Made by a program: the position numbers and the translations under genes
Part shown: positions 12,176 to 48,200 of the stretch, piece by piece
Layout of the letters: each line of letters begins with the position of its first letter
Numbering within the stretch: the stretch's first letter is position 1
NCBI GenBank assembly: GCA_026770705.1
Contig: JANJGN010000150.1
Coordinates: 372,001 to 436,000 of the forward strand
Length of the DNA stretch: 64,000 nt
Direction of reading: 5' to 3'
From: Isurus oxyrinchus
Lineage: Eukaryota
Notes under the pieces: generated by a model
Told to the model about the DNA's origin: nothing
What the model saw: only the letters and a program-made list of their open reading frames with translations
The model's database searches: none

Positions 12176-12390
12176 TTGCGTCAATATGAACACATATTTG
12201 CACAAGGTGAAGGGCGTTGCGGAGGGACTGATAGTTCTCGGCGCCAGACAGTCAATGTCCCAGTGACCTTACTGCTGGTCCCAGGCCAGTGGGACAGGGA
12301 ACATCGACACTGCAATATCCAGAAATGGGTGTGATACCACACAGCTACCCACCCGCGGCTGTCCCCTTCAAGTGTTTCAGGTATAAGAGC
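12176..12390 (+). promoter_or_regulatory. Hepcidin-like proximal promoter: C/EBP-ATF-like TTGCGTCA (12176), C/EBP TTGCACAA (12198), BMP-RE GGCGCC+AGAC (12240-12249), TGACCTT (12264), TATA box TATAAGA (12382)
   Basis: Motifs read directly, located 70-280 nt upstream of ATG 12459; same classes of elements known in vertebrate HAMP promoters. Confidence 0.65.
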
Positions 12391-12458: not shown

Positions 12459-12550
12459 ATGGGAAGCTCCCAGATGAAATGGCGACTTGTCTTGTTCACT
12501 CTGACTTTGCTGCTCTCCCTGCAGCTGAGTCACTTCTTCTCCTTGTCGAG
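12459..12550 (+). CDS. HAMP: Hepcidin-like exon 1, signal peptide MGSSQMKWRLVLFTLTLLLSLQLSHF.. (donor GAG|GTTAAG; 92 nt, out of phase with exon 2 by 1 nt)
   Basis: ATG 77 nt after TATA; classic n-h-c signal peptide; the donor is phase 0 only in the alternative frame ...SLLLLVE. Confidence 0.75.
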
Positions 12551-12754
12551 GTTAAGCTAAGAGATGTCCCTCTGGGTGAGGTGTTTCTTGCACATGACTA
12601 TACGTCTACCACCCAGATAGACTGGTCTCTTCCGCAGTTTGATATTATTATGTTCGTGCCTTTAATATTGTCGCCCTCTATGAATTTAACATCATTTCCT
12701 TCTGTCGTTTCCCCTGAAATTCTCATTCTTGTTTTCAATCCCTCCTCAGCGACT

Positions 12755-14877: not shown

Positions 14878-14934
14878 GTTGACACTGCTTTAGGTTCTTC
14901 GACGATTGAGAAATCTGTGGATTCCCCGGACACG
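14878..14934 (+). CDS. HAMP: Hepcidin-like exon 2, propeptide VDTALGSSTIEKSVDSPDT (57 nt, phase 0-0)
   Basis: Long polypyrimidine tract and TTTGCAG acceptor, donor ACG|GTAGGT; size and phase match the HAMP middle exon; in frame with exon 3. Confidence 0.8.
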
Positions 14935-17333: not shown

Positions 17334-17450
17334 GGCTCCTTGCTGCAGCGCCAGAACAGAATGAGCAGACAGCAGCTCTGCAGATTCTGCTGTAACTGCT
17401 GTAATTGGAGAGAACCAAATGAGACTTGTGGTTTCTGCTGTAGATATTAG
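17334..17450 (+). CDS. HAMP: Hepcidin-like exon 3: GSLLQRQNR|MSRQQLCRFCCNCCNWREPNETCGFCCRY*
   Basis: Acceptor CTTTTCCAG; RxxR processing site followed by the hepcidin cysteine scaffold C-xx-CC-x-CC-loop-C-G-F-CC-R-Y; TAG 17448-17450. Confidence 0.93.
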   Translation, partial: GSLLQRQNRMSRQQLCRFCCNCCNWREPNETCGFCCRY

Positions 17451-18223: not shown

Positions 18224-18229
18224 AATAAA
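18224..18229 (+). terminator. Candidate poly(A) signal AATAAA for hepcidin-like gene
   Basis: First AATAAA downstream of stop, followed by T/GT-rich sequence. Confidence 0.55.
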
Positions 18230-19864
18230 CAACTTTTGTCTTCACAAAGAGTCTGGCTTGGTATTTCAGGCTACTTGTCTCCCCCTCACCCTCCCCCCCC
18301 CACCATGCCCCCCACACCAGGGAACAATTGTCCCCCCTTCCTCTGAAGTTCTGGGTAAAGATCAGCTTTGTTCAATGCAAGCTGTTCCGACATCGAGAAC
18401 GTTGTTACAAATATCACACAAAGGCCACACGCCATGATAGCCCACTTTCAACAGATTTTACCAGTTGACCAGGTTGAAAACCTTTTCATAAACCACAACG
18501 TAGGTGTTCAATTCTTGCTGCTGTTTGCTTAATGCTCTCATAACTGCTATAACCTCTCTAGTTCCACTACATAACAACACAAACATAAATAAACAGAAGC
18601 AGGAGTAGGCCTTTTGGCCTCCCAAGCCAGCTTGTCCATTCAATTTGAACCTGGCTCCTGCTGAAAGTTATTTAAGTTGAAGCGATAAAGCCATCAGGTG
18701 CAAGGATTAAAATGTAAGCAAAGGAAAAATAATACTTAGACATGAGATTTAAAATCAGTTTCTGTGAAGAATCATACTGAGGCCATTGCTCTGGATTCCT
18801 TCTTTCCAGAGTGAAGGGTTTAAAACTAGGAGTCACATTCAGCAGCTGCGTTGTCTTCTCTAGTTGACTATTTGGAGGTTGCCTGTAGATGTGAATCAGC
18901 AGGTCAGCAGCTTTGGGGAGTCAGTGAAGGTCCCTTTTATTTACAGGATCTGCCACAGGGTGTGCAGGAATATTCCTGCTGAATTCTCCATCCTTGCATT
19001 CATGAAGGGTTTGAAACTGGAAGTCATATTCAGCAGCTGCAATGGCCTCTGTAGCCAACTGTCTGGAGGTTGCCTGTACAGGTGGACTCAGCAGGTCAAC
19101 AGCTTTGTAGGGCAGGGGGGTGCACGGGTAGTAAAGGTCTCTTTACTTTAAAGGCTCTGCCAGTGCAACACTTGATGATCCTGGGTCAAAATCATGTATC
19201 ACCCTCCCCAACAGCACTGTGGATGTGCCCGATGGAGGTTCCTTGGCTTCGACAAGCAGCCTACCAGCTCTACTCTCAATTCCTCTTCGCACTTGCTTCC
19301 TTCCTCCTCTGGTCTTTACTTTGTTATAGTGTTAGTGTCCGCTCTGCCTTTTTTGTTGCTTTCCCAATTCTTCCCACCAACTCTCTCTGGCTTGATCCTT
19401 CTCTGTGCTCATCTCATTGGTTTGGGTTTCTATCCGTTCATTGACCTGGTGTCATCTGAAACTGGTGCAATCAGGTAGGGGTGGGGGGGTTGGCGCTGGC
19501 CGTGGGTGGTGATACACGGCTACCTTTTTACCAAAATTCTTTCACGGGATGTGGACAGCGTTTGTTACCTGTTCCTGACTGAGCCCTGGAGAAGGGGGTG
19601 CTGAGCTGCCTTTTCGAAGTGCTGCAGTTCACCTGGTTTGACTGGTCTGTGGCGGGTTTTGATATAACTCAGTGGCTTGCTCGGCCATTTCAGGGGCCAG
19701 TTAAGAGTCAACCACATTGCTGTGGGTCAGGAGTCACACGTAGGCCAGAATGGGTAAGGACGGCAGGTTTCCTTCCCCAAAGGGCATTAGTGACCCAGAT
19801 GGGTTTTTGCAACAATTGGCCTTAGTTTCATGGTCACCATTACTGAGACTAGCTTCACATTCCA

Positions 19865-25247: not shown

Positions 25248-26091
25248 CTAGAGAACACACAGAAAGAAATCATCACTGACTCTCCGCTTTCAATCTCTCA
25301 CTCTGGCTGAACAATCAAGCTTCATATCACTGCAACATTTGCTGTAATATTGACCCATCCACTGGGATTCAATGTGGAATGAATGTTTTCATTGTAAACA
25401 CTCTAAGAGTGGACAATCGGAACTTTCTCCTTAGCGTGGAACATTGGTGAGAATGGATCATTGTGCTGTTGGACTCCCTGTCCAATGTTTCTCTCCATCG
25501 CTGTGTACAGGATTGTGCTGTAGAAAATTCTGGAAACGTTTAGTGCCGGGTGAAAATCCATCTCAGCCGTGTGTGCGAATCGGGCAGTATCGGGATGGAC
25601 TCCCCCACGGACTTACACACCCCGCTTAATAAACAGTTCCAATCTTTACCCAGAGAGAGGGGAGAATGTGGAACTCGCTCCCACAGGGAATGGTTGAGGT
25701 GAATAGTAGGAAATTAGGAAGTGAAATTGCTTGAAAAGCTTGGAGATGCAAGGGTTAAGTGTTACCGTGCTACCACTGGTGGGAGAGTGTAACTACAGCG
25801 TGATGTTTACATAGGCAATCCCCATTATGAACATGGACATCATGTGAAAAATGGGCACTGGAAAGCTGAGAACTTGGAGGAGGTGTTGCCATGGAAAATA
25901 ATGTGTGTGAGATGTAAAGTTTAGACAGCTTGTCTCTTCATTCAGCAACAATCAAATAAAGATCAGTTAACTTCTATCGACTGTGAAGCACTTTGAGAGG
26001 CATGAGAATGTGGATACTGAGAACGGGCTGCACTGTCAGAGGGTCAGTGCTGAGGGAGTGCTGATGTAGAATGAAGGGTGTCCGTTCTTAC

Positions 26092-26388
26092 CTTGCACAG
26101 TTAGTACGAGGGTCCGCTCCGATGAAACAGATGGATATCTCACTCTGCAGCTGAGATTGTGTCTGTGGTGTTTGAGTGATGGGATCAGGGTCAGAACAGA
26201 AGTATAGGTCAGAGTGACATCATGCTGAGTTACAGTGTTTGAGACTGATCCAGGTACGTCAGTGGGAGTGTCCCAGGTTAAGACAGGTGCTGCTGTTCCA
26301 TTGCACGTTGTGTTGAAGGTGCAGCTTACATCCACACGCTTTCCTGCAATAATTTCAGCAGGGAATATCGTGGGTTTATCTGTGAAAT
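26092..26388 (-). CDS. Siglec-like Ig C2-set exon (copy D) DFTDKPTIFPAEIIAGKRVDVSCTFNTTCNGTAAPVLTW...LSCRVRYPSVSSERTLVLTVQ
   Basis: 297 nt phase 1-1, canonical AG/GT, Siglec domain-2 pattern C..C..P.LTW..LSC. Confidence 0.92.
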
Positions 26389-27116
26389 CTAACAGACAGA
26401 GAATGGATCCTTTTAGAGAAATATAACATGAAGCATCAGTTCAAATAGAAATCACAGTCCCACAAGAAAAAGCACTTTTACAAGGATGATATCAGATCTG
26501 AGAGGTTACAATGATTAGGAGAGAATTTCCTGCTTTGAGACTTTGGTGTTTCTGTCTCTCAGCTTAATACACGTTCACTCCGAGACACTTGAACTGATAA
26601 TAGTGGGTGAGGGTGGTGGAGCAGACCAGAGTTTGGAGTGCACTACCTCATCATTCACTCAGCGATCTGGGCCATTTGTTACTTTGCAATTTGTGGGAGC
26701 TTGCTGTGTGCAAATTGGTTGCTGTGTTTCCCACATTACAATAGTAACTACAATTCAGGAATCAGCTCATTGGCTGTGAAGTGATTTGGTCCATGCTGAG
26801 GTGGTGAAAGGTGCTACAGAAATGTGAATCTTTCTTCTGTCGCTAAGTCAGACTTCGAGACAGGATTAGAGAGATCGATAGGAGTGGATAACCTGATAAC
26901 ATTGATGGACACAGTCAATACATTTAATCATTGATATTAAAGTGAGTATTAGATGTTGCTTTAGGAGTGAACTGGAAGCTATCACCAGGTTATTGAGAAT
27001 CAGACAGTGTGTTATAATAAGCTGTGTTTTGTGTTAATACGTAAACGTCACAGTTTGTGTTATTTCCCATTGAGTGTTGAATGTGAATTGTTGAGTAATT
27101 ATAACACAACACTTAC

Positions 27117-27482
27117 CAGAAACGTGAAGCTGGGTTACAGGGTAATAGTTGTGGCTCGGACCATTGTCAAATTCTATTCTGAAAAAATAAGGTCCTGCAT
27201 CTTCCCGTGTGATGTTGTTTATAATCAGGGAACAGTCGCCATCTTTCAGGTCTCCAGACAGCCGGGTCCGATGGTGGAACCGTGGTAACTCGTGACTGTG
27301 ATCCTTGGAGTGAAAGGCTACAGACGATGTTCCCCGTTCCTCATTATTAAACCAGACTCCACCTCGCGGTTGGTTTTCCAGACACGATGGATAACTGTAG
27401 TGACATGGAATCTGTACACAGGAACCTTCCTGCGCTGTCACCTCTCGTGGACTGTCACCTTTCCACTCTTGTGACAGTCCAG
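27117..27482 (-). CDS. Siglec-like Ig V-set exon (copy D) with essential Arg (YFFRIEF)
   Basis: 366 nt phase 1-1, AQEGSCVQIPCHY, GDLKDGDCSLII, DAGPYFFRIE; canonical splice sites. Confidence 0.92.
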
Positions 27483-27589
27483 CTGGGGAGAGAAATCTCA
27501 ATATTTATCTCTGAATGATTTGTGGATCCACTGAACCCGATATTTACAGATGAGGCTGAATTGGGGGGATGGTCAATACTGAGGAGAAT

Positions 27590-28375
27590 GGCAACAAATT
27601 ATTTTGGCAGGAAGAATAGAAAAACAGAATATTATTTAAATGGAGAGAGGCTGCAGAATGCAGTACAGAGGGATCTGGGTGTCCTTGTACATGAATCACA
27701 GAAAGTCAGCATTCAGGAACACCACGGAATGAGGAAGGCAAGTGGAATGTTGGCCTATATTGCAAAGGGATGGAGTATAAAAGGAGGGAAGTCTTGCAAC
27801 AGCTGCACATGTTGAGATTGTATCAGGAGCAGTGTGTACAGTTCTGTTCTCCTTACTTAGGGAGGGATAGACTCTGCATTGGAGGCAGTTCAGAGGAGGT
27901 TCACTGGGCTGATTCCTGGGATTAAAGGGTTTGTCCTGTGAGGAAATGTTGAGCACGTTGGGCCTGTATCCATTGGAGTTTAGAAGAATGAGGGGTGAGC
28001 TTATTGAAACATATCCGATTCCGAGGGGGCTTGACAGGGTGGATGCTGGGAGGATGTTTCCCCCTCGTGGGGGAATCTAGAACCAGGGAGCACAGTTTCG
28101 GAATGAGGGCTCTCCCATTTAAGACTGAGATGAGGAGGAATTTCCTCTCTCAGAGGGGCGCTAGCCTGTGGAATTCTCTTCCCCAGAGAGCAGTGGAGGC
28201 TGGGCCATTGAATAGACTCAAGGCTGAGTGAGGCAGGTTTTTGATCGACAAGGGAGTCAAGGGTTTGGGGGACAGGCAGGAGAATGGAGTTAAGGCCACA
28301 ACCAGATCAGTGAGAGCAGGCTTGAGGGGCCGAATGGCCTGCTCCTGTCCCTATTTCTTATGTTCCTACATTCTT
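27590..28375 (+). mobile_element. CR1 LINE 3' fragment
   Basis: QRDLGVLVHESQK, RNFLSQR..LWNSLPQRAVEA, GGCCGAATGGCCTGCTCCTG tail. Confidence 0.9.
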
Positions 28376-29029
28376 ACCTTCTAAATATATTAAAGCTGCA
28401 GAATAAACATGCAAGTGACTGACCCGCTCGACCCACCTTCCATCTGGGGGTCCCATGGGGAGGACCCTTCCTGAGCCAGATCCATCAGCCAACATGGTCT
28501 GGATCCGAGCACAGGAGACACGGGGGGGAGTGACTAACAGGCTCCTTGTGACAGGCCCCATCTGTCCAATGGCTGGCTTTCAGCTGCCAAGGCCAGAGTG
28601 GTCCTTGCTAAAACCGGCTCAGGACAGGCCAGGATCCCTGTGCAGACCTCCTCCAGCGCTGCAGCCTCTGTACAAACCCCTCATGCGCTTGTGGAGAGAC
28701 ACAAACAAGGCTGCGCATTACCGAGGAGAATCCCCTCTATGGACTAAGGGGCTGACTCATCACCCTAAACTCAGCAAATGAGGAGGCTCTCGCTCGGTAT
28801 CGGGGCTTGGCATTGGCTCAATAAAAATAATCAAATGACATTTTGGTCAGAAATCTAAGGAGGTTGTACATTCCCTCAAAAATAAGACTCAAGCTGGGGT
28901 CAAGGGTCAAAGGGCAACAACTTATATTTACACATCAACTTTAACATGACAAATCACCCCAAGGTGCTACACAGGAGCGTCATAAAACAAAGTATGTCAC
29001 CCAGACACATGTGGAGATATTAGCGACAG

Positions 29030-30910
29030 CTGGCCAGAAGAGGTCGGTGTTATGGAGAGACAGAGAGAAAGAGACAGAGAGAGAGAGAGAGAGAGAGGGA
29101 GCGGTTTCGGGTGGGAATTCCAGAGCTTAGGTTCCCAGGGAACTGAGGGCACGGCCGGTAATTTTGGAGCGATAGCATCCGGTGATGGTCAAGAGTCTGG
29201 AATAGGAGGAGCGCAGTGATCTCGGGGGGTTGTAGGTGCTATAGTTTGTACAGAGGCTGTAGAGAGGCTACAAATTAGGAAAATTTGGAGAGGCTGGAGG
29301 AGGTTACAGAGCTAGGGAGGGTTGTACAGTATGCAGGTGGTTACAGAGATAGGGAGGGTTGTAGGGGCAGGATGGGTTTACAGAGATACGGAAGGTTGTA
29401 GGGGCTGGAGGAGCTTACAGTGAAAGGGGGGGCAGTGTAGGGACTGGTGGAGGTTACAGGGTAAGGCAGGCTTTAGGGGCCTGAGTAGGTTACAGAGACA
29501 GGGGGTTTGGAGGGACTGGAGAAATTTATAGTAAAAGGGAGCCTTTAGGGGCAAAAGATAGTTACAGAGATAGAGAGGCTGGACGGGAATGGGAAATGTT
29601 ATGGAGATAGGGGGTTTGTAGGTACAGGATGGGGTTATAGGGACTGGATGAGGTTACAGAGATAGAGAGTGCTGTAGGGACTGGAGGAGGTTACAGAGAT
29701 AGAGAGTGCTGTAGGGACTGGGGGATGTTACAGAGATAGGGGTTGTTGCAGCGGTTGGTGAAGGTTACAGAGAAATGGACCGTTGTTGGAGCTGGAAGAG
29801 GTTTATGAGGTAGTGGTGGTTATAGGGACTGAAATAATTTACAGAGATTGGGAGTGTTGTAGGGGCTGGAGGAGGTTACAGAGATAGGGAGCGTTGTAGG
29901 TACTGGAGGAGGATGAGGAGATTACAGGGATAGTGAGGAAACAAAGATGAAAATTTGGACATTGAGACTTTGCTTGACCAGGAGCCAGTCTCGGTCATCG
30001 AGCAGAGCGGGTGATAAGGGAATGGGACTTGGTGTGAGTAAGGACGGGGTCAGCAGTTTTGGATGGCCTCAAGTTTATGGAGTGTAGAGCGTGTGTTGGA
30101 ACAGTCGAGTCTGGAGGTAATGAAGGTGTGGATGAGGGTTTCAGCAGCAGATGAGCTGAGACAGGGTGAAGTCGTACGATGTTACGGAGGTGGAAATAGA
30201 CGGTGTTAGTGAGGGCGCAGATATGAGGCCGGAAGCTCATCTCAGGATCAAATGGGACAACAAAGCTGTGAACAGATTGGCTTCAATCTCAGAGAGCTGT
30301 CAGGGAGAGGAATGGAGTTGGTAGCGAGGGAACAGAGTTTGGAGCGGGGAATGAAGACAATGGCTTCAGTCTTTCCAATATTTAATTGGAGGGAATTTCT
30401 GCCCATCCAGTACTGGATGTCGGATAAGCAGCCTGATAATTTAGCAGCAGTGGAGGAGTCGAGAGAGGTGGTGGTGAGGTAGAGCTGGGGATCCTCAGTG
30501 GACAGGTGAAAACTAACACTGATCAGATGATGCTGCAAAGCCATTGCAAGTGATTCTCTGGCTACGATGAGTTGGATAAGAGTGGAGCCAGGGGAGAGCA
30601 GTCCCACCCAGCTGGACGACAGTGGAGAGGTGTTGGAGGAGGATGGTGTGGTCGAGCGTGTCAAAGGCTGCAGACAGATCGAGAAGGACGAGGAGGGAAA
30701 GTTGACCTTTGTCACAGTCACACAGGATGCCATTTGTGACCTTGATAAGAGCTGTTTCAGCACAGTGGCTGGGGTGGGAACCTGATTGGAGGGATTCAAA
30801 CATGGAGTTCCGGGAAAGATGGGAACGGATTCGGGAGATGGAAACGCGTTCAAGGACTTTGGAGGGGAAAGAGAGGCTGGAGATGGGACGGGGGTTTACA
30901 CGGACAGTGT
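29030..30910 (-). mobile_element. L2 LINE RT fragment with decayed 37-bp minisatellite (29200-29930)
   Basis: SKVLERV..ESLQSG..TALIKVTNGIL..LLVLLDLSAAFDTLDHTILL; LSDIQYWMGRNSLQLNIGKTEAIVF. Confidence 0.88.
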
Positions 30911-31167
30911 GAGGGGTGGAAGGTGTAGTGGGGAGGAGACACTTCACTCAGTGGGGAGGTGTCATCACCCCTCAGCTCGGTTTACGTTACAGCTATGATG
31001 TGGATTCAATCACACACAATAAGCTCATGGATCTGGGAGCAGAAATAGACAAATCATTAAAAATAGTGACGCTGGTTAACACGGCCAAAAAACAAGCAAA
31101 TCAAACACTATTATTTCCCGTTGAGTGTTGGATGTGAATTGTTGAGTAATTATAACACAGCACTTAC

Positions 31168-31554
31168 CAGAAACGTGAAGCTGGGTTTCAGGATAGTTGC
31201 TGTAACTATTTTTGCCGTCAAATTCTATTCTGAAATAATAAGGTCCTGCATCTTCCCGTCTGATGTTGTTTATAATCAGGGAACAGTCGCCATCTTTCAG
31301 GTCTCCAGACAGCCGGGTCCGATGGCGGAACCGTGGTAACTCGTGACTGTGATTCTTGGAGTGAAAGGCAATGATCCCTCTAGACCTTGTATTCCATGTA
31401 TTCCATGTGTACCATTTCACATACCAGATTCCGACACGTGCTCTCCCTACTAAACGTGCTGGATAACTGTAATTACATGGGATCTGTACACACGAACCTT
31501 CCTGCGCTGTCACCTCTCGTGGAGTGTTGCCTTTCCACTCTTGTGACAGTCCAA
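31168..31554 (-). CDS. Siglec-like Ig V-set exon (copy C) with extended Trp-rich C-C' loop and essential Arg (YYFRIEF)
   Basis: 387 nt phase 1-1, open frame, canonical CCCCAG / GTAAGT sites. Confidence 0.88.
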
Positions 31555-32182
31555 CTGGGGAGAGAAATATCAATATTTAACTCTGTGTGTTTTGACGATC
31601 CACTAGACTCGATATCCACCCCCTCCTTCACTGGGGCACAGTGGCTGCAGTGTGGACCATCTACAGGACACACATGGAACTCCCCAAGGTATCACAATGG
31701 ATGGGAGAGAATCCTGGAAACAGGAGTGGACAAGTTCATTCTACATTGGCTGATGGTCCTCAGGACCCTGATTGTGCACAAGCCTGCTATCCAACAGAAC
31801 TGAAGTTGGGGAAAATCCATTTGGAATTCCATTGTCCAGGGCATTGTGTTAACTAGCTGGGTTTGTTTTAAATCTAAAATCTATTTTTGGTCTGTTGCCT
31901 TAAAGGGAGTGTAACTGGGAGTCAGATTAATTAGGAATTTTTGGAGTTATTATAGCTGTCATTGTAGTCTTATGTATGTGCTTGAAATCTTTTATTTTTG
32001 TGACAAATATTTTAATTTATTTTTTTAAATCTCTAAAGATCTTGGTGGACTTATTGCTTCTGAATTCAGTGCACACATCTCATAATAAATACAAATTGCA
32101 AATTCATTATGATCGTGTGACCACCTTTCTCTCAGGGACTTGGTCTGCCTGGGTCACATCACCTGCCAAGTGATAACACTGT

Positions 32183-33493
32183 TGTAATATGCCTTTCAGG
32201 GACAGCAGCATGACATCACTCGAGGGGAAGTGCGTCATGTGATTTTTCAGAACTGGGGTTGGCTTAAGGAAGCTCTCTGTCTATTTGTGTGTGTTAGGTA
32301 TAAGGTATATCTTTCAATTCAAGTTTAGTTTGTATTTCTGTATTTGGGTGTTTTGAAAAGGGGGAACTTGAGTTTTGGTTTCACTTTGGAAGAAGCCGCC
32401 TATCTAATGAGTTTTTATAACTCTTGAAGGGAAGTCAAAACAAACACAAGTTAGAAGAAACTGTGTTGTTGCCTAGCAACAGTGATCCAGAGGGAGGGAC
32501 ACACAGAGACCGAGAAAAACAGAAAAGTACTTTCAGTTCTGTTGAAAGGAGTTGCCAGGAGACGCAGCAAAGGATTGGGACAGATAGTCAGTCCCAAAGT
32601 AAAGATGAAGCCAAAACTATCGAGTGGAACAGGAGAAAGGGCCCAAGAAAACCTTCTAGTCAAATCTGGAAAAGGCCCTGTTAAGTGAAGTTAAGAGTGA
32701 GGAACAGAAGAAGGCTCGAAACATAAAGGGAGAAAGCAGCAAGACACAGACCTAAAGCAAAATAGGCTTGCGAGAAGCCAGAAGATCCTAGGAGACACCA
32801 CAGGTTGGTGACTCATTACTACGGCCGTGTGAAGCCATGGTGTTCCATTGACATGGCTGAGCATTGGAGAGACAGGGCGTGGAAGGAAGGCTGAATGCAC
32901 GTGGCGATCCAGGGGACAGGAACATGGGAAGGAGAGTTTGAAATAGTGAAAGTGGACCCTTGTGGAAGGTGTCTGAGTGAAAGTGTCATGTTGGAGGAGA
33001 TTCCAAAGTGAGTTCTTGGAGAGTGGAGATTGGAAACCCTCATATGGATATGTCAGTTCAGTGAGACTGGTTGGCTCACAGTGTAACAAGCGTCTGGGGT
33101 CAGATGAGGAGGGAGACATAGCATTTGTTCCAAGTGGGTTCTGTCAGTTTCTTTAAGAATGTGTTGTCCCTGACCCCAGGTCGTCTACTGGTTTACATCG
33201 ACTGTGCACTTAGTGTGAACATGAGAGTATAAGATAGCTATTGTAACTTGTGTTCTACTTATGAATCTGCAAAGGTATAGGTCTGAGTGAAGGAGTAATG
33301 TAATATAATTTGTCTTTCCTAGTTTAATAAATGTTTTATTCTTTTGTTAGAAGTTCATCAGATGACTCCTGTGACTCTGTTCAGTAGCCTCACTCCACAT
33401 TCCTAAATAAAAAATAAAAGTTAGGACCTATCAAGCTGAGTTCCACGCTGGGATCTGACTTGCCCAGTAGTAACATCAGCTGGGATGATAACA
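32183..33493 (+). mobile_element. Probable solo LTR-like element
   Basis: TGTAAT...GATAACA termini and internal AATAAA (~33326); no clear TSD. Confidence 0.45.
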
Positions 33494-34296
33494 CCATCCA
33501 GTCCAAGTTTCACTTTGGTCTGTGAGCAGAACACAGCTCACACAGTTTGGCTGCAGGTGTCTCCCAGCTTTCTATCCTTGTATATCTGTTCTCATGTCCC
33601 TGTTCTAAATAACTGAACCCACAATGTATTTACCCAATTCCGTATCAGGGGCTGGTGCCTTTATATCATTATAAAAACACAACATGGTGATCAGCGGTGG
33701 CCAAACATTCTGGCAGCAAGATTCAGTACAGGTATGACGTGGTGAACAGCCTGAGATCGAGCTACATGACATGAGACGACCCTCGACACTTTGGTCAGAC
33801 CATAACAGAGACACAGCATCAGAGAGGGTTGAAATCGCAGTGTACTGACTGCTCAGGAAACCGTTGAAGACACAGTGACGGGAAAGAGCTCAAGTAAAGA
33901 GCTGGGGAGCAGACGGATCCCTCATGGTGAGATTACAGCACACGGCCTGTAGGTCAGTGAGTGGGACAGTGTGTATCGCCAGGACCAGCAGCGGGTTACC
34001 TCAGTCAGGGAAGGCGAGTGACCAGGGTGTGGGCTGGATCGATAGTGAGCGAGGGAGAGTCAAACACACAAAAACCATTATAAAAATCAGCCCAGAGAAG
34101 TTAGTGATTATAACGGGCGGCTTCGAGATTGCTGAACAGCAAATTGAATAAAAAACAAAGACTCCATTACTCCGTGGTGTGTTCCTGCCACAACCCGTCT
34201 TCGTGGGCGGAGCTTCGGAAAAGCGCACAAAAGGGGCTAAAGCGACACTCATCCCAGATCCTGTAGGAGAAGGCAGGTCAAAGGAATATTGTCAGA

Positions 34297-35500
34297 ATGT
34301 CCACGAAATTCCCCAGTTTGAACTGGGATGTAGCTGACCGACTATCTGAATTCAGAATGTTTAAACAGCGTACAGAGCTCTGGTTTCCTGATTCAGGTGT
34401 GACTGAACCAGACGAACAAGCCATAAAAATTCACCTCGCGATTGGGAATGAAGGTCTACCCAGGCTGAACACGTCAGGATTAACAGCTGAAGAGTGAAAG
34501 GATCCCCAATAGATATGGACGACTTTGGAAGACAGGTTCAGAATCAGGTGAAACTCCATATTCATCAACTAGAGTTTATGTCATTTCATCAGCCTACACA
34601 ATCCATAGACCACTTTGTCAGCCAATGTAGAGAAAAGGGTACGCACTGTGATTTCAAACACAGAGCCTGCAGACACAGTGAGTTGGTGATCGCATCCACT
34701 CCCATGGAAGCCTTCCAGAAAGATCTGCTAGATAAGTCCAAAACCTATAGCATTGAAGAGCTACTCAAGGATGGACATAAATACGAAGTAATCCTCGCAG
34801 GTCAACGAAGCTTACAGGTCCTCAGTACAACATCAATTGTTGACACACTCACTAGAACATCCAAACCTAGTGAGACGTGTGGAAGGTGTGGCCTTCTGCA
34901 GGCACCAAGGAAATGCCCAGCTTTCCACCAATCCTGCAAGGCTTGTGGCAGAAAGGGCCATTGACAGCGGCAGGGCACTAGAGCAAAGGCTGATGCAGCT
35001 ACAAAGAGCCGTGCGCTGATCCAAACAGACCCTACACAACTGGGAACCTTCAAGCAATAAGAATGACCATCCACTATCCCATCAGGAACATATACATGTG
35101 GTGACAGACAAACCAGGAAATGGCGATGATGTGCACGGTGAGACGAGGAGCGGTGATCGATATTCCACCTCTCACACATATCCTGACGTGGCTTGCCAAT
35201 AAATTGTGGATTGTTGTCCTTAATGATCTCTCTCAGCACATCAAATAAACTGAAAATGTCCCATAGGGGTGGGATTTTCTGGCCCCACCCACTGCCAGGA
35301 TTATCCAGTCTGGCCAAAAGCCAATGGATTTATGTTTGTCCCAGTTTCACATACTACCCCATCACCTCAATTCATGACATAACATTGAAATATGCAGAAA
35401 GTTTCAACAATATTGGCAGTTTCAAAGGAGCTCCAACATTACACCTGCTGGAGAATGCAAGTCTGTCAATTGATCTAGTCCATTTAGCACAACACAAATG
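34297..35500 (+). mobile_element. Ty3/Gypsy gag (zinc knuckle) and decayed pol remnant
   Basis: LNW..LSEFRMFKQR.ELWF, CGRCG..CPAFHQSCKACGRKGH double knuckle; stops and frameshifts. Confidence 0.8.
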
Positions 35501-36416
35501 CCAGCAGCTGCAAGAGGGAACGGTGAAAGCTTCTACGCTACAGAAACTGAGGAAGCATCATTGAAGGATCTCCTGATTCAACTTGATCTTATTGGGATGA
35601 GCAAGGCATCTCCCGGGGAGTCATTTTTAAAGGCAGGCAGGGCATCATACTGGAATCTTTGTGATCCGATATTCTTCGACAACTTGGCAGTGGGAAATAG
35701 TGGGGACAGCCTGTCAAGGTAAGAAAATGAGGGGCCCATTGGCAGGTGTCAGTACTGTCCACATGTGTGTCCATCTCAGGCTGTTGGCTGGCCGAGTGCT
35801 TACAAGGATTTGAGATCACCTACAACATTTTGACTGTGACTCTCAGCACTCCACTGTGCCTGCTCTTGGACAATGTCCTTTACCGCGCATCGAAGGGAGG
35901 GCCTGCTGAACCTGCAATGTGAAAAACTGCCCAGGGATATGTCCAATCCAGTGGGACAATTCCAACCTGGCCAATCACCACCTTATTAATTTACTCTTCA
36001 TCATAAGCAAAGTGACAAAGGTGTAATGGACATTAAGAGGCATTGACTCAACAATAACCTGCTCATCCAGCATGGTGGTAGTGCCACACAACACAATGGA
36101 GGGTATCCTCAGTGAAAGGACGGGACTTCATCTCCAAGGTTTCTGTTCAGGACCAGGGTCCTATGGAATCATTACACACAAAGGATCAGCGGTGAGGCCT
36201 AACCGAGGATAAATCAGATCCATTCCCGCTCCTCAATCACCGTACAGTCCTGTTGCATGGAGTCATCGGGCTGAATTTTCCCGTTGGCGAGCAGGGGGCA
36301 GGGCCTGCTCAGCGACACTATGATGATGCGGGATGACATCAGGAGGAACCCCCGACATCATCCTGCCCCATTTAAATATTCAGACCCACCCCCCCCGACA
36401 GGCAGGAAATTCAGCC

Positions 36417-39210
36417 CATAGAGTCATAGATTCACAGGGGTCCACAGCACAGTAAAAGGCCCTTTGGCCCATCGAATCTGCGTCGGTCAAACAAGTACCT
36501 AATTATTCTAATCCCATTAATGCACTGGGCCCAAAGCCTTGTATGCGATGGCATCACAAGTGCACATCCAAATACTTCTTAAATGTTATGAGGGTTTCTG
36601 CCTCTCCCACCCTTTCAGGCAGTGAGTTCCAGATTCAATCTATGCAACATCCTGGTAAATCTCCTCTGCACCCTCTCTAGGGCAATCACATCCTTCCTAT
36701 AATGTGGGTTCCAGAACTGCACGCAATATTCTAGCTGTGGCCTAACCAGTGTTCTATACAGTTCCAGCATAACCTCCCTGCTCTTATATTCTATCTCTCG
36801 GCTAATAAAGGCAAGTATTCCATATGCCTTCTTAACCACCTTATCCACCTGTCCCACTACTTTAAGGGAACGGTGGACATGCACACCAAGGTCCCTCTGA
36901 TCCTTGTTACTTTCCAGGGTCCTACCATTCATTGTCTATTCCTGTGCCTTGTTTATCCTGCCCAAGTGCATCACCTCACACTTATCCAGGTTAAATTCCA
37001 TTTGGCACTGATCAGCCCATCTGACCAGCCCGTCTATATCCCCCTGTAATCTAAGGCTATCCTCTTCATTATTTACCACCCCATCAATTTCCATATCATC
37101 CGCGAAGTCACTGATCAACCTTCCTACATTCAAGTTTAGACCGTTTATATATACCACAAACAGCAAGGGACCCAACACCGATCCCTGTGGAACCCCACTG
37201 GACACAGGCATCCAGTCACAAAAACACCCGTCGACCATCACCCTCTACTTCCTGGCACTCAGCCAATTCTGGATCCAATTTGCCAAATTCCCTTGGATCC
37301 CATGTGCTCTTACTTTCGTTTACAGTCTCCCATGCTGGACCTTATCAAAAGCCTTGCTGATGTCCAAGTTGACTATGTCAAATTCATTGCCCTCATCTAC
37401 ACAATTGGTCACCTCTTCAAAAAATTCAATCAAACTGGTCAGACATGACCTCCCTTTAACAAAACCATGCTGACTGTCCTTGATTAATCCCTGCCTCTCC
37501 AAGTGTAGATTAATTCTGTCCCTCAGAATTGCTTTCAATAGTTTCCCCACCACTGAGGTTAGACTGACTGACCTGTTGTTCCCTGGTTTATCCCTTCCTC
37601 CCTTCTTGAATAACGCTACCACATTGGCTGTCCTCCAGTCCTCTGGTACCTCTCCTCTGGCCAGAGATGTATTGAAAATTATTGCCAGCACCCCTGCTAT
37701 CTCCTCCTTTGCCTCACTCAACAGCCTGAGATACATTTCATCCGGGCCTGCAGATATATCTACGTTTGAGACTGCCAGACAACTTAGAACCTCGTTCCTT
37801 TCTATTCTAATTTCTTTAACTATATCACAGTCCTTCTGCCTGATTTCCAAACCCACATTGCCCCTCTCACTTGTGAACACTGACACAAAGTGTTCATTTA
37901 GAACCCTACCTACATCTTCCGGTTCCACACACAAACTACCAATATGGTCCTTAATGGGCCTTACTCTTTCCCTAGTTATCCTCTTACTCTTAATGTACTT
38001 GTAAAATAACTTTGGATTTTCCTTCATTTTTCCTGCTAATGTTTCTTCATGGCCCCTTTTTGCTCTACTAATTTTCTTTTTAAGGTCCCCCCTACACATT
38101 CTATACTCTTCTAAGGCTTCCACTGTTTTGAGCCTTTGGTATCTGCCATAAGCCTCCCTTTTTCTCTTTATCCAATCCTGTAAATCTCTCGACATCCAGG
38201 ATTCCCTGGATTTGTTGGTCCCACCCTTTGCCTTTACTGGAATATGTTGGCCCTGTACTCTCCCCACTTCCTTCCTGAATGAGTCCCATTGCTCTGACGC
38301 AGATTTCCCTAAAGGTAGCTGCTCCCAGTTCCACTCTGGCCAAATCATATTTGATCTTATTAAAATCAGCCTTCCACCAATTGAGAACTCAGATTTCTGG
38401 CCCATCCTTGTTCTTTTCCATAACAACCTAGAATCTAATGGAATGATGATCACTATCTGCACAATGCTCCCCCACTGATACGTCTACAACTTGCCTGGTT
38501 ACATTCCTTAAAATTTACTCCAGGACCGACCCCTCTCTTGTAGGATTTTCTATGTACTGGCTTAAAAATCTCTCCTGGATGCATTTTAACAATTCTGCCC
38601 CCTCTAAAACTATCACACTATGACTAACCCAGTTATTGTTGGGGAAGGTGAAAAGCCCCACCATTACAACCCGATTATTTTTATACTTCTCTGAATTTTG
38701 CCTTTGTATCTGCACTTCTATTTCTCTGAGTGTCATTGGGCCTGTAGAACACTCCCAGCAAGCTGATTGTTCCTTATTTGTTTTTAGGTTCTACCCATAT
38801 GGCTTCATTTGAGGAGCCCCCTAAGGTGTCTTCCCTCCTCACTGCAATAACTGATTCCTTGATCAATCTTGCAATACCCCCTCCTCTTTTACCTCCTTCC
38901 CTGTCTTGCCAGAAGACCCTGTATCCTGTAATATTGAGCGGCCAATCCTGCCCCTCTCTAATCCATGTCTGTGACAGCAATGACATCATACATCCATGTG
39001 TTATTTGTGCCCTCAACTCATCTGCTTTATTCGTCAGACTCCTTGCATTAAAGTAAATATAATCCAACTTTGCCACGCTATCTTGTGCCTTAACTGGCCA
39101 ATAATTTCTCTGCCTTCCAGGTTCACTTGCTCTCTCTTCTAATTTTGGCTGTGCATCTCCCTCTGCTGAACCTCCTCTCTGGATCCCATCCCCTGCCTCC
39201 CCAATTGCAT
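36417..39210 (-). mobile_element. CR1 LINE, near-complete ORF2 (APE endonuclease + RT), disrupted
   Basis: YFNARSL.NKADEL, DREGGKRGGGIA, WRTANVVALFKKG, QHGFVKGRSCLTSL, SGVPQGSVLGPLLF, FADD; split over ORFs 38774-39265, 37320-38462, 36936-37241, 36615-36932. Confidence 0.93.
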
Positions 39211-41656
39211 CAAGGGTAAAATGCCAATTGAAACCAGGGACAACATCCAAGAATGACAATCCCACAGATCACTGTGAGCATTTAAAGACACCTCCAGACA
39301 AGGTTACCAACACAAGATCTGGGCGTAAGTGCAGATTACCTCTACTCTTTAGACACTCAAATATTCAACAAATCTATACTGTTATGTAATTGTCAATAAA
39401 ATTGAAAATGATACCAGAAACCTCTTGTTCCCTGTCCTTCTCAAAGATCCATCCCTGCAGCTGGAGCCTTAAGAGTTATTGATGTGGGGCTTAATTTATC
39501 AGATTGTAGAATGATCGGGAACAAAAGGAAGCCATTTGGCCCATCGAGCCTGTGCTGGGCTTTTGAAAGATCTGTCCAATTAGTCCCACACTCACCTCTG
39601 CTCTCTCCTCCACAGCCCTGCAAAATGTCCCCTTCAAGTATTTATCCAGTTCCCCTTCTGAAAGTTCCTGTTGAATCTGCTTCCACCGGCCTTTCAGGCA
39701 GTGAGTCAATGGTCTCTCTCTGAGCTGCAAAGTGCTCAGATTCTGTGAAATTTAAACTCTGCAGCAGATCAGAATCAATCAGGATAACTCAGAATATTTG
39801 ACAGCTTTACACACAGACAGCTTTACCTTCCTTCTCTCTTTCAGTTATCTTGCTCCCTTATTGAAGTATCTAGCATGGTGAGAATGGACAGGAAGTGTGA
39901 CACTGAACAGCCTGTCTATTCTAGGAGCTGCTGTGTTGTCTTCATGGGCAATTTTGAATAAAGGCAGCAACGGGCACATATTTCAGGTCATTGCTATCGG
40001 AGACCTAACATTAGGATAGACTTCATCCCCCAGTTTTTATCCCTGATTTTCTATTCAGCCGATCGCTGCCCTGTCACTGGCTGACCTACACTAACTCTCA
40101 GTCCAGCAATGACTCAAATTTCAAATTCTCATCATTGATTTCTTACCCCACCATCCCCCCTCTACACTCCCGATCCCTGTAACCTCCTCCAACCCTAAAA
40201 ACCTCTGAGATCTCTGCTCTCCTCCAATTCTGCTGTCAGACAGGAGGTCAGTGTGTATCAGTAAGCACAGGGGTGATGGGTGAATGGGACTTGGTGTGAG
40301 TTTGTACACTGGCTCACTGGCTCAATCGGGCAGGATTGAGATGGACTCCCCCACGGACTTACACCCCCCGCTTACTAAACAGTTCCAATCTTTACCCAGA
40401 GAGAGGGGAGAATGTGGAACTCGCTCCCACAGGGAGTGGTTGAGGTGAACAGTATCGATGTATTTAAGGGGCATGAGGGTTGGTAACCAGAGGGACACAG
40501 ATTGATGAACCGGATGGGGAATTTGTTTTGACAGAGCGAGTTGTTGTGATCTGGAAGGTGCTGCCTGAAAACGCGGTGGAAGCAGATCCAATAAGAACTT
40601 TCAAAAGGGAAATTGGATAAACACTTGAAGGAGGAAGATGGGGGCAAAGTGGAGTGGTGGTTAGTGGATCTGATGGGATAGAACATTGAAAGACCTGGCA
40701 CAGGCTCAATGGGCTGAATGGCCTCCTCCTGTGCTGTATCATTCTCCGCTTCCATGATCTCTCCCCCAGTCAGTAACCACTCCAGATCCCTCTTGAAGGT
40801 GACAGAGAAACAGCAACCACCACATCCACTGACAGCACATTCCCGAGGATCCCTACTCTCTGGGAAAAGATGAACTCCCCAACATCCAGCCTATTCCTGC
40901 CACCCGGAGAGTGTAAACCCTTCAGGGAGGCACTGAGGAAGTTTTCAATAAAATGAATTATCAAATCTACCGTTTGAGAAACAATTGAATTCCGAAGAAC
41001 TCACAGCTTGTGTAGCAAACTGGGAAGTAGAGTTGCTGGGAAAGCTGGGAAACACAAGGATTAAGGGCTACAATGCCACCACTGGTGAGAGGCTGTAACT
41101 ACAGCGTGACGTTTACATAGGCAGTCATCATTATAAACAGGGGCTTTGGACATACTGGGAATTATGTGCACGGAAATAGTGAGAACATTATGTAAGCTTT
41201 TCACCAGCAGGAATTCTCTTCCTAAACCCCTCCAACTCTCTCTTACTCTCAGATACACAAAGAAAATCACACAGAATCAGATAAGGAGGAGTTGGGTTGG
41301 TGATTCGTCAAAGGGTTAGGTTTCAGGAAGCTTCTTAAAGGGAGAGAGAGAGAGTTGGAGACGCAGAGAGTATCTGTGAGAGCCTCTAAACATCTGAGTG
41401 TCTGTAATAGTAATTTCCATATTCTTCCATAAATATGAATGGGAACACAAATCCCAGAATTCAGGCTAACTCTCCAGTGCAGTAGTGAGGGAGGTCAGGT
41501 AACCCATGAGGGAGTGAGTGTTAGTGTTTGTGTGTGAGTGTGTCTTTGTGTGTGGTCATATATGTGTGTCTGCACGTGTCTATTTAGGTGTGTATGTTCG
41601 ATGGTGTTTGTGTAGTGTTCGAATCTGAGAGAGATGTTGAAGTCTGTGTAACTCAC

Positions 41657-41809
41657 GTTCCACAGTAATGGTTATGAACCCCTCCACTGCTCCATGTTCA
41701 TTCTCTGCCACACACTGATAGTCTCCAGTGTCCCTGGAGGTAATGTGAGGAATCACCAACCACAGCTCATTGTTGGAACTTGTTTTGTTCATTTGGACAT
41801 TCAGATGTC
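41657..41809 (-). pseudogene. 5'-truncated third Ig (C2) exon of Siglec-like copy B
   Basis: HLNVQMNKTSSNNELWLVIPHITSRDTGDYQCVAENEHGAVEGFITITVE with donor retained; homology to 50046-50327 stops at ~41809; N-terminal half and acceptor deleted. Confidence 0.85.
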
Positions 41810-42132
41810 ATGGCAGGAATCAAGAAGCCCGTTCACAGGATTACCAACAGAAAGTGAACAACAATTTATACTTAATGGGAAGAGAGTGCTGATTGGTTGG
41901 CAAGTGGTCTCTGATAGGTGGAGGTGTTGCCATGGAGAATGGTGTGTGCGAGATGTAAAGTTTAGACAGCTTGTCTCTTCATTCAGCAATAATCATATAA
42001 AGATCAATTAACTTCTATCGACTTTGAAGCACTTAGAGAGGCCTTAGAATGTGGATACTGAGAATGGGCTGCACTGTCAGAGGGTCTGCGCTGAGGGAGT
42101 GCTGATGTAGAATGAAAGGTGTATGTAATTAC

Positions 42133-42429
42133 CTTGCACAGTTAGTACGAGGGTCCGCTCCGATGAAACAGATGGATATCTCACTCTGCAGCTGAGAGTG
42201 TGTCCATGGTGTTTGAGTGATGGGATCAGGGTCAGAACAGAAGTATAGGTCAGAGTGACACCATGCTGAGTTACAGTGTTTGAGACGGATCCAGGTACGT
42301 CAGTGGGAGTGTCCCAGGTTAAGACAGGTGCTGCTGTTCCATTGCACGTTGTGTTGAAGGTGCAGCTTACATCCACACGCTTTCCTGCAATAATTTCAGC
42401 AGGGAATATCATGGGTTTATCTGTGAAAT
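42133..42429 (-). CDS. Siglec-like Ig C2-set exon (copy B)
   Basis: 297 nt phase 1-1; nearly identical to 26092-26388 and 53224-53520. Confidence 0.92.
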
Positions 42430-43288
42430 CTAACAGACAGAGAATGGATCCTTTTAGAGAAATATAACGTGAAGCATCAGTTCAAATAGAAACCACAGTC
42501 CCACAAGAGAAAGCACTTTTACAAGGATGATATCAGAACTGAGAGGTTACAATGATCAGGAAAGATTTTCTTGCTCTTTGGCAGTAGTGTTTCTGTCTCT
42601 CAGCTTAATACACGTTCACTCTGAGACATGTGAATTGAGAACACTGGATGAGAGAAGAGGCTCAGACCAGAGATTGGAGTTAAAAGCAGAATACTGTGGA
42701 TGCTGGAAATCTGAAACCAAAACAAAAATTGCTGGAAAGACTCAGCAGGTCTGACAGTATCAGTGGAGAGGAAGACAGGGTTAACGTTTTGAGTCCGTAT
42801 GACTCTTCATCAGACCAGAGGTTTGAGTTCACTGGCTTCTCATTTCCTCAGTGATCTGGGTGATTTATTACATTGTGGTTTGCTGGATCTTGCTGTGCAC
42901 AAACTGCCTGCTGTGTTTTACATCTGTGACTACAATTCAGGAATAATTTCATTGGCTGTGAAGGGATTTGGATCCTCCTGAGGTGGTAAATTGCGCTGCA
43001 GAAATGCACATCTTTCTTTTATCGATACGTCAGACTTTTAAACAGGACAGGAGAGATTGATGGGAGTGGATAACCTGATAATACAGTTAATGCTTTTCAT
43101 CATTGATATTAAAGTGAGTATTAGATGTTGCTTTAGGACTAAACTGGAAGCCATCACCAGGTTATTGAGAATCAGACAATGTGTTAAAACAAGCTGTGTT
43201 TTGTGTTAATATGTAAACGTCACAGTTTGTGTTATTTCCCATTGAGTGTTGAATGTGAATTGTTGAGTAATTATAACACAGCACTTAC

Positions 43289-43657
43289 CAGAAACGTGAA
43301 GCTGGGTTACAGGGTAATAGTTATGGCTCGGACCATTGTCAAATTCTATTCTGAAAAAATAAGGTCCTGCATCTTCCCTTCTGATGTTGTTTATAATCAG
43401 GGAACAGTCGCCATCTTTCAGGTCTCCAGACAGCCGGGTCTGATGGCGGAACCGTGGTAACTCGAGACTGTGATCCTTGGAGTGAAAGGCTATGGGAGCC
43501 CAGGGAATCTGTTTCTCATTATTAAACCAGACTCCACCTCGTGGTTGATTTTCCAAATGTGCTGGATAACTGTAATGACATGGAATCTGTACACACGAAC
43601 CTTCCTGCGCTGTCACATCTCGTGGAGTGTCACCTTTCCACTCTTGTGACAGTCCAA
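43289..43657 (-). CDS. Siglec-like Ig V-set exon (copy B) with essential Arg
   Basis: 369 nt phase 1-1; GLSQEWKGDTPRDVTAQEGSCVQIPC...GDCSL...YFFRIEFDNGPSHNYYPVTQLHVS. Confidence 0.92.
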
Positions 43658-44519
43658 CTGGGGAGAGAAATATCAATATTTAACTCTGGATGGTTTGTAG
43701 ATCCACTAGACTCGATATCCACCCCCTCCATCACTGGGGCACATTGGCTGCAGTGTGGACCATCTACAGGACACACATGGAACTCCCCAGGGGTTTCATA
43801 ATGGATGGAAGAGAATCCTGGACACAGGAGTGGACAACTTCATTCTACATTGGCTCATGGTCCTCAGGACCCTGTTTAGTGAAGCCAGTCTTCCACCCAA
43901 CACAGTGTTTACAAGACACACAGGGAAACTGTGTAAACATCTCATCTCTCTAAACTGACTGGTTTGTCTTCGGTTTAACTTTCAGTTATTTTACTTCCTT
44001 ATTATGGTTGCTATGGTGAAACTGTGCAGGAAGTGCGAGGGCTGGACTCTCTGTCTATTCTCACTGCAGCTGTGATGTAGTCGTGGTGGTTTTCAGTAAA
44101 ATGAAACCCTCTGATCTCCTCCATCGCCGAGGTTTAGGGAGTGAATTCCAGAGCTCAGGCCCCAGGCAGCTGAAGGCCCGGCCGCCAGTATTGGAGTGAT
44201 GGGAATCGGGGGATGGTCAAGAGGCCGGAATTGGAGTAACACAGAGATCTGGGACGTTGGTTGGGAGAGTTGCAGGAGGTTACAGAGATAAGGAGGCAGT
44301 GTGAGGCAATGGATGCATTTGAACAAAGAGATGTGAATCTTAAGTTTGAGATGTTGTAGGACCAGGAGTCAGATAGTTTAGGGGTGATGGGTGAATGGGA
44401 CTTGGTGTGAGTTTGTACACTGGCTCACTGCTGAATCAGTTCCCAATCACAGCTCAATAAGAATGATCTTTTACAAAGACTATTCACCATAAATCTGTCT
44501 GAGCTGACGATGATATTAC

Positions 44520-44559
44520 CTTGGAGAAGTGACAGGAGGAAGTAAGATTTCCCGACCAT
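44520..44559 (-). CDS. Signal-peptide exon, copy B (MVGKSYFSLSLLQ-, phase 1)
   Basis: ATG 44559, donor CAAG|GTAATA; paralog of 56127-56166. Confidence 0.85.
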
Positions 44560-45009
44560 TATCCACTCCCAGATATTTCATCAGATTCTCACTCTGAAGT
44601 TCTGAAAGAGAAAGGAGTTAATGAGACCTCACCTCTTGTCCGACAGCTCTCGAGAGATCAGATCTGCTTTTAGACAATGTCTTCACAGAATAGTTTGATT
44701 CTCTGTGGGATGATAGGTGTTCTGCAGAGAGTTACAAGGCTTTAAGAAGGAAAAACAATGAAGGATTTGCATTTCCATAGCACCTTTCACCACCTCAGGA
44801 TGTCCCAAAGCTCATGTCTCTGCACTTCCCTCATCCCTTGAGCTCGAAAGATGTTCTGTACAACAGACTTGAGCCTCACACCCAGATCTCAATAATCAGT
44901 AGAAATCTTTCAAAGGCGTCAATCATTGGAATCTGTCTTTATAAAGTCACAACATCAACAAAGGACGATGTTGGTGGTGGAAGTGAATTCCAATCGTTCC
45001 GTTACTTAC

Positions 45010-45155
45010 CCAGGACCTGTCCGACTGCTCGCCTGGGGAGGAACTGCCCACACGCTCTGCTTGGGCTGAATGACCTCTTCCTGTGCTGCTCCCTCTGTGT
45101 GTTTAATTAGAAAGGGCTGATGTGTCACTGTGAGACAAAATGAGGAAGTGGGTAA
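45010..45155 (-). promoter_or_regulatory. Promoter and non-coding exon 1, copy B
   Basis: Donor TGG|GTAAGT at 45009; AT-rich TATA-like element ~45105; PU.1-like GAGGAAGT at ~45142; duplicated at 56611-56750 and 63290-63399. Confidence 0.6.
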
Positions 45156-45369
45156 TCAGTGAGAAGATTGAGGATGTTTTGTGCTCTCAGCAAAACGTTT
45201 ACCATGTGATGATCTGTCAGCTCATATTTGGGCAGCTGTAGTCATCAAGTTTCTCCATTGGCTCCATGGGATTAGACCCCTCCCCCTCACCTCAGAGGCT
45301 GAAGCGCAGGCGATAGACTTCCCAATACAGGTCTCTGGCCGTATGATACATGTTGACAATCCCTGATAT

Positions 45370-46860: not shown

Positions 46861-47569
46861 CTGAGTGTGGTCTGCACTGCCCTAAGTGCATTCTAGGCAC
46901 TGCCCAAGATTCCGCCTGATGTCCGTGTAACAACAACATCATGTACACGTCGAGAATATTTCTCACTGTGTCTGTGCAGCAAGACAGCTTTGGAATGGCA
47001 CCACCACTGGCAGGAGTGTGCAACTACAATGTGACATGTTTACATTGGAAGTTTCTATAATAAGGATGGGCACAGGAATTTATATAATAGAGAAAATGTG
47101 ACAACAAGAAGCTTTTCTTTGAGGCAAGAATTTGGCAGCAAAATAAGAATTTTAATCTATAAATATTTACAGAACAGGCTGAGCATTTTAATCACTTGTG
47201 TTAATCAATGTAATTTTATTCATAACCCAAATGCTTCTTACAATCTATCGCAGCATGAAAAAGGTGCAGCATTCAGAAAGCACATTCCAATCAGAGAACA
47301 GAGTTTAGCAACGTCACATTTCTGTTCATTCCTATTCGACCATGTTGGCTGCACACAGCCAGACAATGCCGTGGTTATGATGTGTCCACACAGCAGGACT
47401 GGGGAGCACCAGGTATAAGGAAAAGTTTCAGCTTGCTGAGGAGAAGAAGGACAATCTCTCGTTCCAGGTTTCTCTCCGTACATTAAGAAGCAGGCATGCC
47501 GATGTTTCATTGCACTCTGTCTGCTGATGGGAGTCCGCTTGGAAATTGCTGTTTGTGCTGATGGAAAGA

Positions 47570-48180: not shown

Positions 48181-48200
48181 GATTGTTGCTGTCCAAATCT

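Follow-up and report, generated by a model that had tools for sequence, protein, structure and literature searches.

A derived hepcidin in 89 near-identical copies within a Siglec-like gene array of a shark genome

A three-exon hepcidin gene with a TT donor at intron 1

The window is the whole 64,000-nucleotide stretch of Isurus oxyrinchus DNA analysed here. Its forward strand carries a hepcidin-type gene and its reverse strand a group of Siglec/CD22-like neighbours (Table 1). The exon 3 translation scores 32.5 bits against the Pfam Hepcidin profile PF06446, above the gathering cut-off of 27 (E 1.1e-7), so the match is not a chance one; the hepcidin cysteine pattern of the exon 3 type has a single instance in the window. 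The exon translations align over their full length with an 88-residue basking shark precursor (94% identity in exon 1 and 84% in exon 2), and the predicted peptide has the eight cysteines of the Hepcidin family. Retranslation of 17349–17450 on the forward strand gave a product identical to that in the preliminary description, with an RQNR processing site, a 29-residue peptide with eight cysteines, an eight-residue Cys5–Cys6 loop containing N-E-T, and a stop. Exon 1 has its first ATG at 12459 and a second in-frame ATG at 12474. The candidate upstream site at 12198 has a motif that we take to be that of C/EBP. In the human hepcidin promoter, each of the two BMP-responsive elements has the motif GGCGCC (PMC3879105, excerpt).

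Table 1. Features of the hepcidin-type gene and its neighbours in the window.
Feature	Position	Strand	Evidence
C/EBP-like site	12198..12205	+	Pattern match, motif only
GGCGCC, motif of human hepcidin promoter BMP-responsive elements	12240..12245	+	Only occurrence in the window
TATA box	12382..12386	+	Pattern match
Exon 1 coding part, signal peptide	12459..12551	+	Aligns with basking shark precursor P0004; in-frame joint with exon 2 in contigs
Intron-1 donor position, TT instead of GT	12552..12553	+	TT in 36 family copies; 48 others and the two C34 genes have GT
Exon 2 (57 bases), propeptide; intact AG and GT sites	14878..14934	+	Alignment to basking shark precursor; contig joints
Exon 3 start: propeptide end and RQNR processing site	17334..17360	+	Translation; AG acceptor before 17334
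Exon 3: predicted 29-residue mature peptide and stop, eight Cys	17361..17450	+	Translation; Pfam
Cys5–Cys6 loop codons	17403..17426	+	Exon 3 translation
N-E-T codons	17418..17426	+	Exon 3 translation
AATAAA signal and poly-A site	18224..18248	+	Sequence; loose A-run after 18248 in run X2
Siglec/CD22-like neighbour genes: four V-set, three C2 and one I-set exon	26039..55226	-	Pfam V-set/Ig_CD22 matches

The three-exon structure of a hepcidin prepropeptide gene (exons starting at 12459, 14878 and 17334) is also seen in contigs from runs X1 and X2, where 12551 is joined to 14878 and 14934 to 17334 at GT..AG, i.e. at the predicted sites; the contigs terminate in poly-A. Both runs come from one sample of organism A in one study and their RNA status is assumed; the spliced contigs occur with variant-type and with ordinary-type letters and are not assignable to single copies.

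A functional variant requires intact splice signals and frame, and this copy lacks them at the intron-1 donor. Because of the change from GT to TT, the window's copy with exon 3 at 17334–17450 is likely a dead gene, i.e. a pseudogene, in line with the ‘decaying copy’ that the preliminary description had listed as one option. Splicing from the GT that lies one base upstream would put exon 2 out of frame, with a stop at its base 16 and a 30-residue product, and such a frame-shifted exon 1–2 joint was absent among the 15 of 560 contig joints listed. In-frame rescue by another donor was rejected because the sole in-phase GT downstream lies past a stop; rescue through two weak cryptic splice sites combined is possible on paper. 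We also rejected RQNR as the chief sign of decay, since seven of the 43 intact copies described below have it; the lesion is the donor change. RQNR is a minor allele at the processing site (19 of 89 copies, with RQKR in 64) and conforms to R-X-X-R only, not to R-X-K/R-R. R-X-X-R alone is enough for furin.

Intron 1 ranges from 1.6 to 3.1 kb among copies, with a median of 2178 bases in those with a TT donor versus 1835 in the others, and in the window it contains a tandem repeat of about 37 bases (approximately 12750–14160). The Pfam scan that located the Siglec-like exons covered 50 of the window's 279 open reading frames; the V exons have a Y-F-F-R motif that presumably includes the sialic-acid-binding arginine. 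A broken MAG/Siglec-like gene lies at 5723–6902 on the forward strand; its signal exon is followed by a V-set exon that terminates in a stop, and retroelement-like sequence comes next. Remnants of retroelements, consisting of pieces of aspartyl protease and reverse transcriptase, are present at 7639–7971, 20498–20881 and 37320–38480.

Copy number, mosaic structure and variation of the family

The main point beyond the preliminary description is that the variant constitutes a diversifying family of 89 copies. A search of the genome with exon 3 returned 91 matches, all 91 of which were scored; 89 are variants at 78–100% identity, and two, both on contig C34, are ordinary hepcidins at 54%. A Pfam search of the genome recovered the same hepcidin set with weak extras; two weak Hepcidin-profile matches, at C126:1200707–1200784 and C988:21589–21666, have two stops each and are below cut-off. 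The variants are spread over 14 contigs in both orientations at a median spacing of 112 kb, with 30 copies (17 of them intact) on the 4.2-Mb contig C52 and 20 on C71. The copy floor is therefore 30, the number on one contig, and 89 is the assembly total, which may span two haplotypes.

For each of the 90 matches outside the window, we retrieved 10 kb of surrounding sequence and looked for exon 1 within 8.7 kb. Intact genes, with three exons, splice sites and eight cysteines, account for 43 of the 89 variants and encode 21 distinct mature peptides. The other 46 are broken or incomplete: 36 have TT at the intron-1 donor, five have no whole exon 1 within the fetched 8.7 kb, and five more have a defective acceptor, have lost an exon or are frameshifted. 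Cysteine changes are singletons only and are confined to donor-dead copies.

The 78 copies with all three exons differ at a median of 25 positions per 1524 columns, and only three of 3003 pairs differ at 0–1 positions; most copies are therefore not assembly duplicates. Contig depth over exon 3 in runs X5 and X6 (8.3 and 5.5) showed no pile-up, depth not being equal to copy number. No linkage is seen between donor state and exon-3 variants (r2 ≤ 0.05), and a tree of the copies has 11 changes of donor state, versus at least 19 in 500 shuffles. The copies are thus mosaics, as expected of gene conversion.

No variant has the His-type N-terminus characteristic of HAMP1 (0 of 89); N-terminal positions 3–6, which both C34 copies keep, are replaced and variable, and seven copies are two residues shorter. 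The N-E-T codons are identical in all 89 and in frame in 87, although nine invariant bases are not unlikely at a background of 8% shared variable sites. The net charge of the intact variants is 0 to +4, versus +5 for the ordinary peptide.

Divergence is concentrated in the mature region, which differs from the ordinary copy at 30 of 87 bases, compared with 72 of 823 in the flanks (about 9%; Fisher p 7e-10), 5 of 78 in exon 1 and 5 of 57 in exon 2. A similar pattern is seen within the family when sites with the minor allele in at least five copies are considered (14 of 87 versus 36 of 819 in the flanks, p 1e-4), and 13 of these 14 frequent mature-region variants are non-synonymous, one of them at the edge of a 6-base deletion. 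When all variable sites including singletons are counted, the mature region has no excess (19 of 87 versus 166 of 819, p 0.78), and exons 1 and 2 are depleted (8 of 135 versus 166 of 819, p 2e-5). Among 40 full-length intact copies piN is 0.046 and piS 0.012, and a codon model of 34 haplotypes gives an omega of about 15 (2dlnL about 18 versus omega 1), a value inflated by heavy recombination, with 35 of 78 site pairs failing the four-gamete test. One of 15 shared sites is synonymous, a count that by itself does not reach significance against the site numbers (p 0.16). The mature region is also highly diverged from the C34 copy at synonymous sites (5 of about 14, partly path-averaged), and this fits an older paralog with converted flanks.

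The same Siglec-like exon arrangement adjoins the C34 copies, and between 9.8 and 23.6 kb the window aligns collinearly with that locus in blocks of 85–94% that include the hepcidin gene and DNA downstream of it. One V-set exon has 1072 candidates in the genome; the best 150, at 90–100% identity, all lie on array contigs or on one further short contig. Since the same Siglec-like exons stand beside the C34 copies and in the array, the amplified unit is hepcidin together with Siglec-like genes, and hitchhiking competes seriously as an explanation of the copy number. Array contigs include C52, C71, C150, C189, C121 and C385, and some V exons recur every 2.3 kb.

Comparison with hepcidins of sharks, rays and teleosts

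The two ordinary hepcidins on C34 are 31 kb apart, begin with M-S-H-L-S and have an eight-residue loop. The proposal that the window encodes a derived paralog without a His-type N-terminus is borne out by this comparison. Human hepcidin has a four-residue loop (HRSK) and the N-terminal motif DTHFP, and the preliminary description had read the doubled loop as a mark of the paralog; this reading fails, as eight residues is the common elasmobranch state. We compared the ten named elasmobranch sequences that could be parsed by cysteine pattern. Some of the ten, taken from two species of catshark, are near-duplicates, and the comparison excludes P0012, which is an isoform of P0008, as well as two basking shark isoforms that have no hepcidin exon 3. 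Eight of the ten have an eight-residue loop and two a four-residue loop, and none has a loop sequon, so the sequon was rightly singled out as unusual. The long loop was likewise rejected as a private insertion, since both C34 copies share it with these eight. On these sequences, eight residues is the usual loop length in sharks and rays.

The variant resembles other elasmobranch hepcidins (basking shark XP_078389754.1, catshark XP_038670190.1, Mustelus XP_078092315.1, stingray XP_059813392.1) in its three-exon prepropeptide, eight cysteines, eight-residue loop and 29-residue mature peptide. It differs from them in lacking the His-type N-terminus, in its acidic loop with N-E-T, in its net charge (about +2 versus +4 to +6), and in its 89 copies versus one or two annotated per elasmobranch species among the matches. 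The sevengill shark ‘hepcidin-like’ protein XP_067831447.1 (P0016) shares the loss of the His-type N-terminus and contains C-R-F-C-C together with C-G-I-C-C, but it retains its own lineage's basic loop, has no sequon, and falls in a protein collection cluster of two with no sign of amplification. Both P0016 and catshark P0006 are second hepcidins whose prepro region is nearly identical and whose mature region has changed; P0006 has an N-terminal sequon.

Exon 3 contigs were found in organism B (18 differences in 540 bases) and organism C (11 in 416). These differ from the ordinary copy at 60 and 49 positions respectively and from family members at 3–15, and being nearer to the family they indicate that a variant-type gene exists in two other organisms. 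No variant-like protein was found by a word-based search of proteins of 31–100 residues or by phmmer against 1.84 billion representatives at E 0.001, where a 38-residue query is weak. An Atlas match of the variant to hepcidin, at 0.75, is a lead only. Hepcidin has been detected in nurse shark plasma (PMC9207270, excerpt).

Among teleosts, HAMP2 hepcidins have undergone tandem expansion and rapid change of the mature peptide (PMC6240063 and PMC9073008, excerpts; PMC3325200). The variant is like the HAMP2 peptides of bass, croaker and seahorse in its lineage-specific tandem expansion, fast mature-region change, lack of the His motif and C-R-F-C-C; it shows the multi-copy expansion and mature-peptide selection of a HAMP2-like family, with the estimate of selection inflated by recombination. 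Excerpts of PMC6240063 give loops of 4–5 residues for teleost peptides and, for five croaker peptides, C-R-F-C-C in two, C-Q-F-C-C in two and C-R-Y-C-C in HAMP1. The only PDB match, bass hepcidin 1S6W, is weak (E 0.77); C-R-F-C-C-N-C-C is common to both, and 1S6W also has a loop sequon, N-M-S. Unlike teleost HAMP2, the variant arose out of the shark's own gene, by a separate origin, has an eight-residue loop, lies inside a Siglec-like array and is known here from sequence alone. HAMP2, the antimicrobial type, is described for actinopterygians only (PMC3978493, excerpt), and on flank divergence descent of the variant from it is unlikely, the flanks being about 9% from the same genome's ordinary gene.

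Reviews give one to nine hepcidin copies for teleosts, and the variant copy count is about tenfold the largest of these numbers (nine; PMC4690011, excerpt). Literature searches, with subscription journals and supplements (where shark genome papers might give counts) outside their scope, returned no report of a shark hepcidin expansion, and excerpts of PMC6795676, PMC3832898 and a bioRxiv ferroportin paper contain nothing on this subject. The variant family would be the largest hepcidin expansion that we found described.

Regulatory and receptor context was also compared. Hepcidin is a single gene in most mammals, with LSR and USF2 nearby; the shark genome has four LSR matches, none on C34 or the array contigs, so that the mammalian gene order finds no confirmation in LSR. 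In 72 of the 84 variant copies that have exon 1, GGCGCC and the ATG are no more than 400 bases apart, such that the variants retain a proximal BMP-type element motif, a feature of iron-regulated hepcidin, and in both C34 copies it is 2.6–3.3 kb further up than in the variants. In these copies (L013 and L014) an insertion has pushed GGCGCC away from the TATA box, to upstream distances of 2.6 and 3.3 kb; the L013 insertion contains a 32-base tandem repeat. Three ferroportin-like loci (L123–L129) are present, at C14 56.7 Mb, C14 74.7 Mb and C3 138.6 Mb, and two of them retain equivalents of the reference positions Cys326 and His507 (PMC7655804, excerpt). In the C14 74.7 Mb locus these positions are occupied by Gly and Arg, and this locus would thus be without a hepcidin/metal site. 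Hepcidin contacts ferroportin through its first six residues (PMC9882908), and in mammals the N-terminus is necessary for ferroportin binding (PMC6316648). As ordinary hepcidin and ferroportin with Cys326/His507 equivalents remain in this genome, iron control is still provided for, which seems to leave the variants free to take on a different role.

Interpretation and alternative explanations

We hold with moderate confidence that this is a derived shark hepcidin, present as 89 near-identical copies in a Siglec-like array, whose family members are likely secreted and possibly glycosylated host-defence peptides, likely with no action on ferroportin, the window's own copy being likely dead. The best reading by analogy is likely that of a shark-specific, HAMP2-like family with a predicted defence function; we infer host defence, glycosylation and loss of ferroportin activity. 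Intact copies would be spliced, and their products secreted and cleaved at R-Q-K/N-R. The peptides may be glycosylated after translocation, a route that is possible for C-terminal N-X-T sites through STT3B (PMC3613688, excerpt), and at least 21 different ones would be released together, with microbes or immune cells as their targets. With the net charge down from +5 to 0–4, a plain cationic killing mechanism is not assured, and the less cationic croaker HAMP2 peptides had no antibacterial activity (PMC6240063, excerpt). Donor-dead copies would yield just the 30-residue product and at most serve as conversion donors.

A more far-reaching version is tentative, though possible: that in a shark lineage, independently of teleost HAMP2, hepcidin has given rise to a large and diversifying set of immune peptides that are secreted and N-glycosylated, with the splice-dead copies as a gene-conversion reservoir of exon 3. 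The boldest step, in which the variant glycan would be a ligand of the co-amplified Siglec-like receptors, is highly improbable.

Hitchhiking with the Siglecs is the main rival, if an unlikely one, to the preferred reading of a diversifying defence family. The variant would then be a single-function or near-neutral passenger of an amplifying Siglec block, and the dead donor would have spread because an extra dose was useless or harmful. The roughly tenfold excess of Siglec-like V exons on the same contigs (1072 candidates, best 150 scored) accords with this, as do the 85–94% collinear blocks that the window shares with the C34 locus, hepcidin and the DNA downstream of it included, and the 46 broken or incomplete copies. 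Exons 1 and 2 are, however, four times less variable than the flanks, and a concentration of frequent variants at amino-acid-changing sites of the mature region is not predicted by passive amplification. The variants could alternatively still be iron regulators or modulators, through binding to a paralog of ferroportin or through competition with the ordinary hepcidin, which we consider rather improbable. The proximal GGCGCC, displaced in the ordinary copies, is consistent with such a role, as are the three ferroportin-like loci, two with the Cys326/His507 equivalents, and the finding that one croaker HAMP2 peptide without a His motif raised macrophage iron (PMC6240063, excerpt). The N-terminus that mammals need for ferroportin binding (PMC6316648, PMC9882908) is nonetheless replaced and hypervariable in the variants and shortened in seven, and diversification is not expected from a single host receptor.

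It is very unlikely that exon 3 of the variant represents an ancient second shark hepcidin lineage with flanks homogenised with the ordinary gene, rather than a product of recent selection. The raised synonymous divergence of the mature region is consistent with this possibility, as are the sevengill shark and catshark paralogs in which an altered mature region follows a near-identical prepro region; but the loop of the sevengill paralog follows its own ordinary gene, the catshark paralog is unlike both, and neither large protein collection yielded a variant-like protein. That the copy number is mostly an assembly artefact, through haplotypes or false duplications, is hardly credible: the array does extend over 14 contigs, some short, and includes three near-identical pairs, but 30 copies are on one contig in both orientations and the median divergence is 25 differences per 1524 columns.

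For comparative work the baseline is corrected, in that the eight-residue loop is ordinary in sharks and rays. If the preferred reading of a diversifying defence family is true, the array would represent a second independent split of iron control and defence, in a shark, and the copies would provide a natural panel for the residues that decide between ferroportin binding and host defence.
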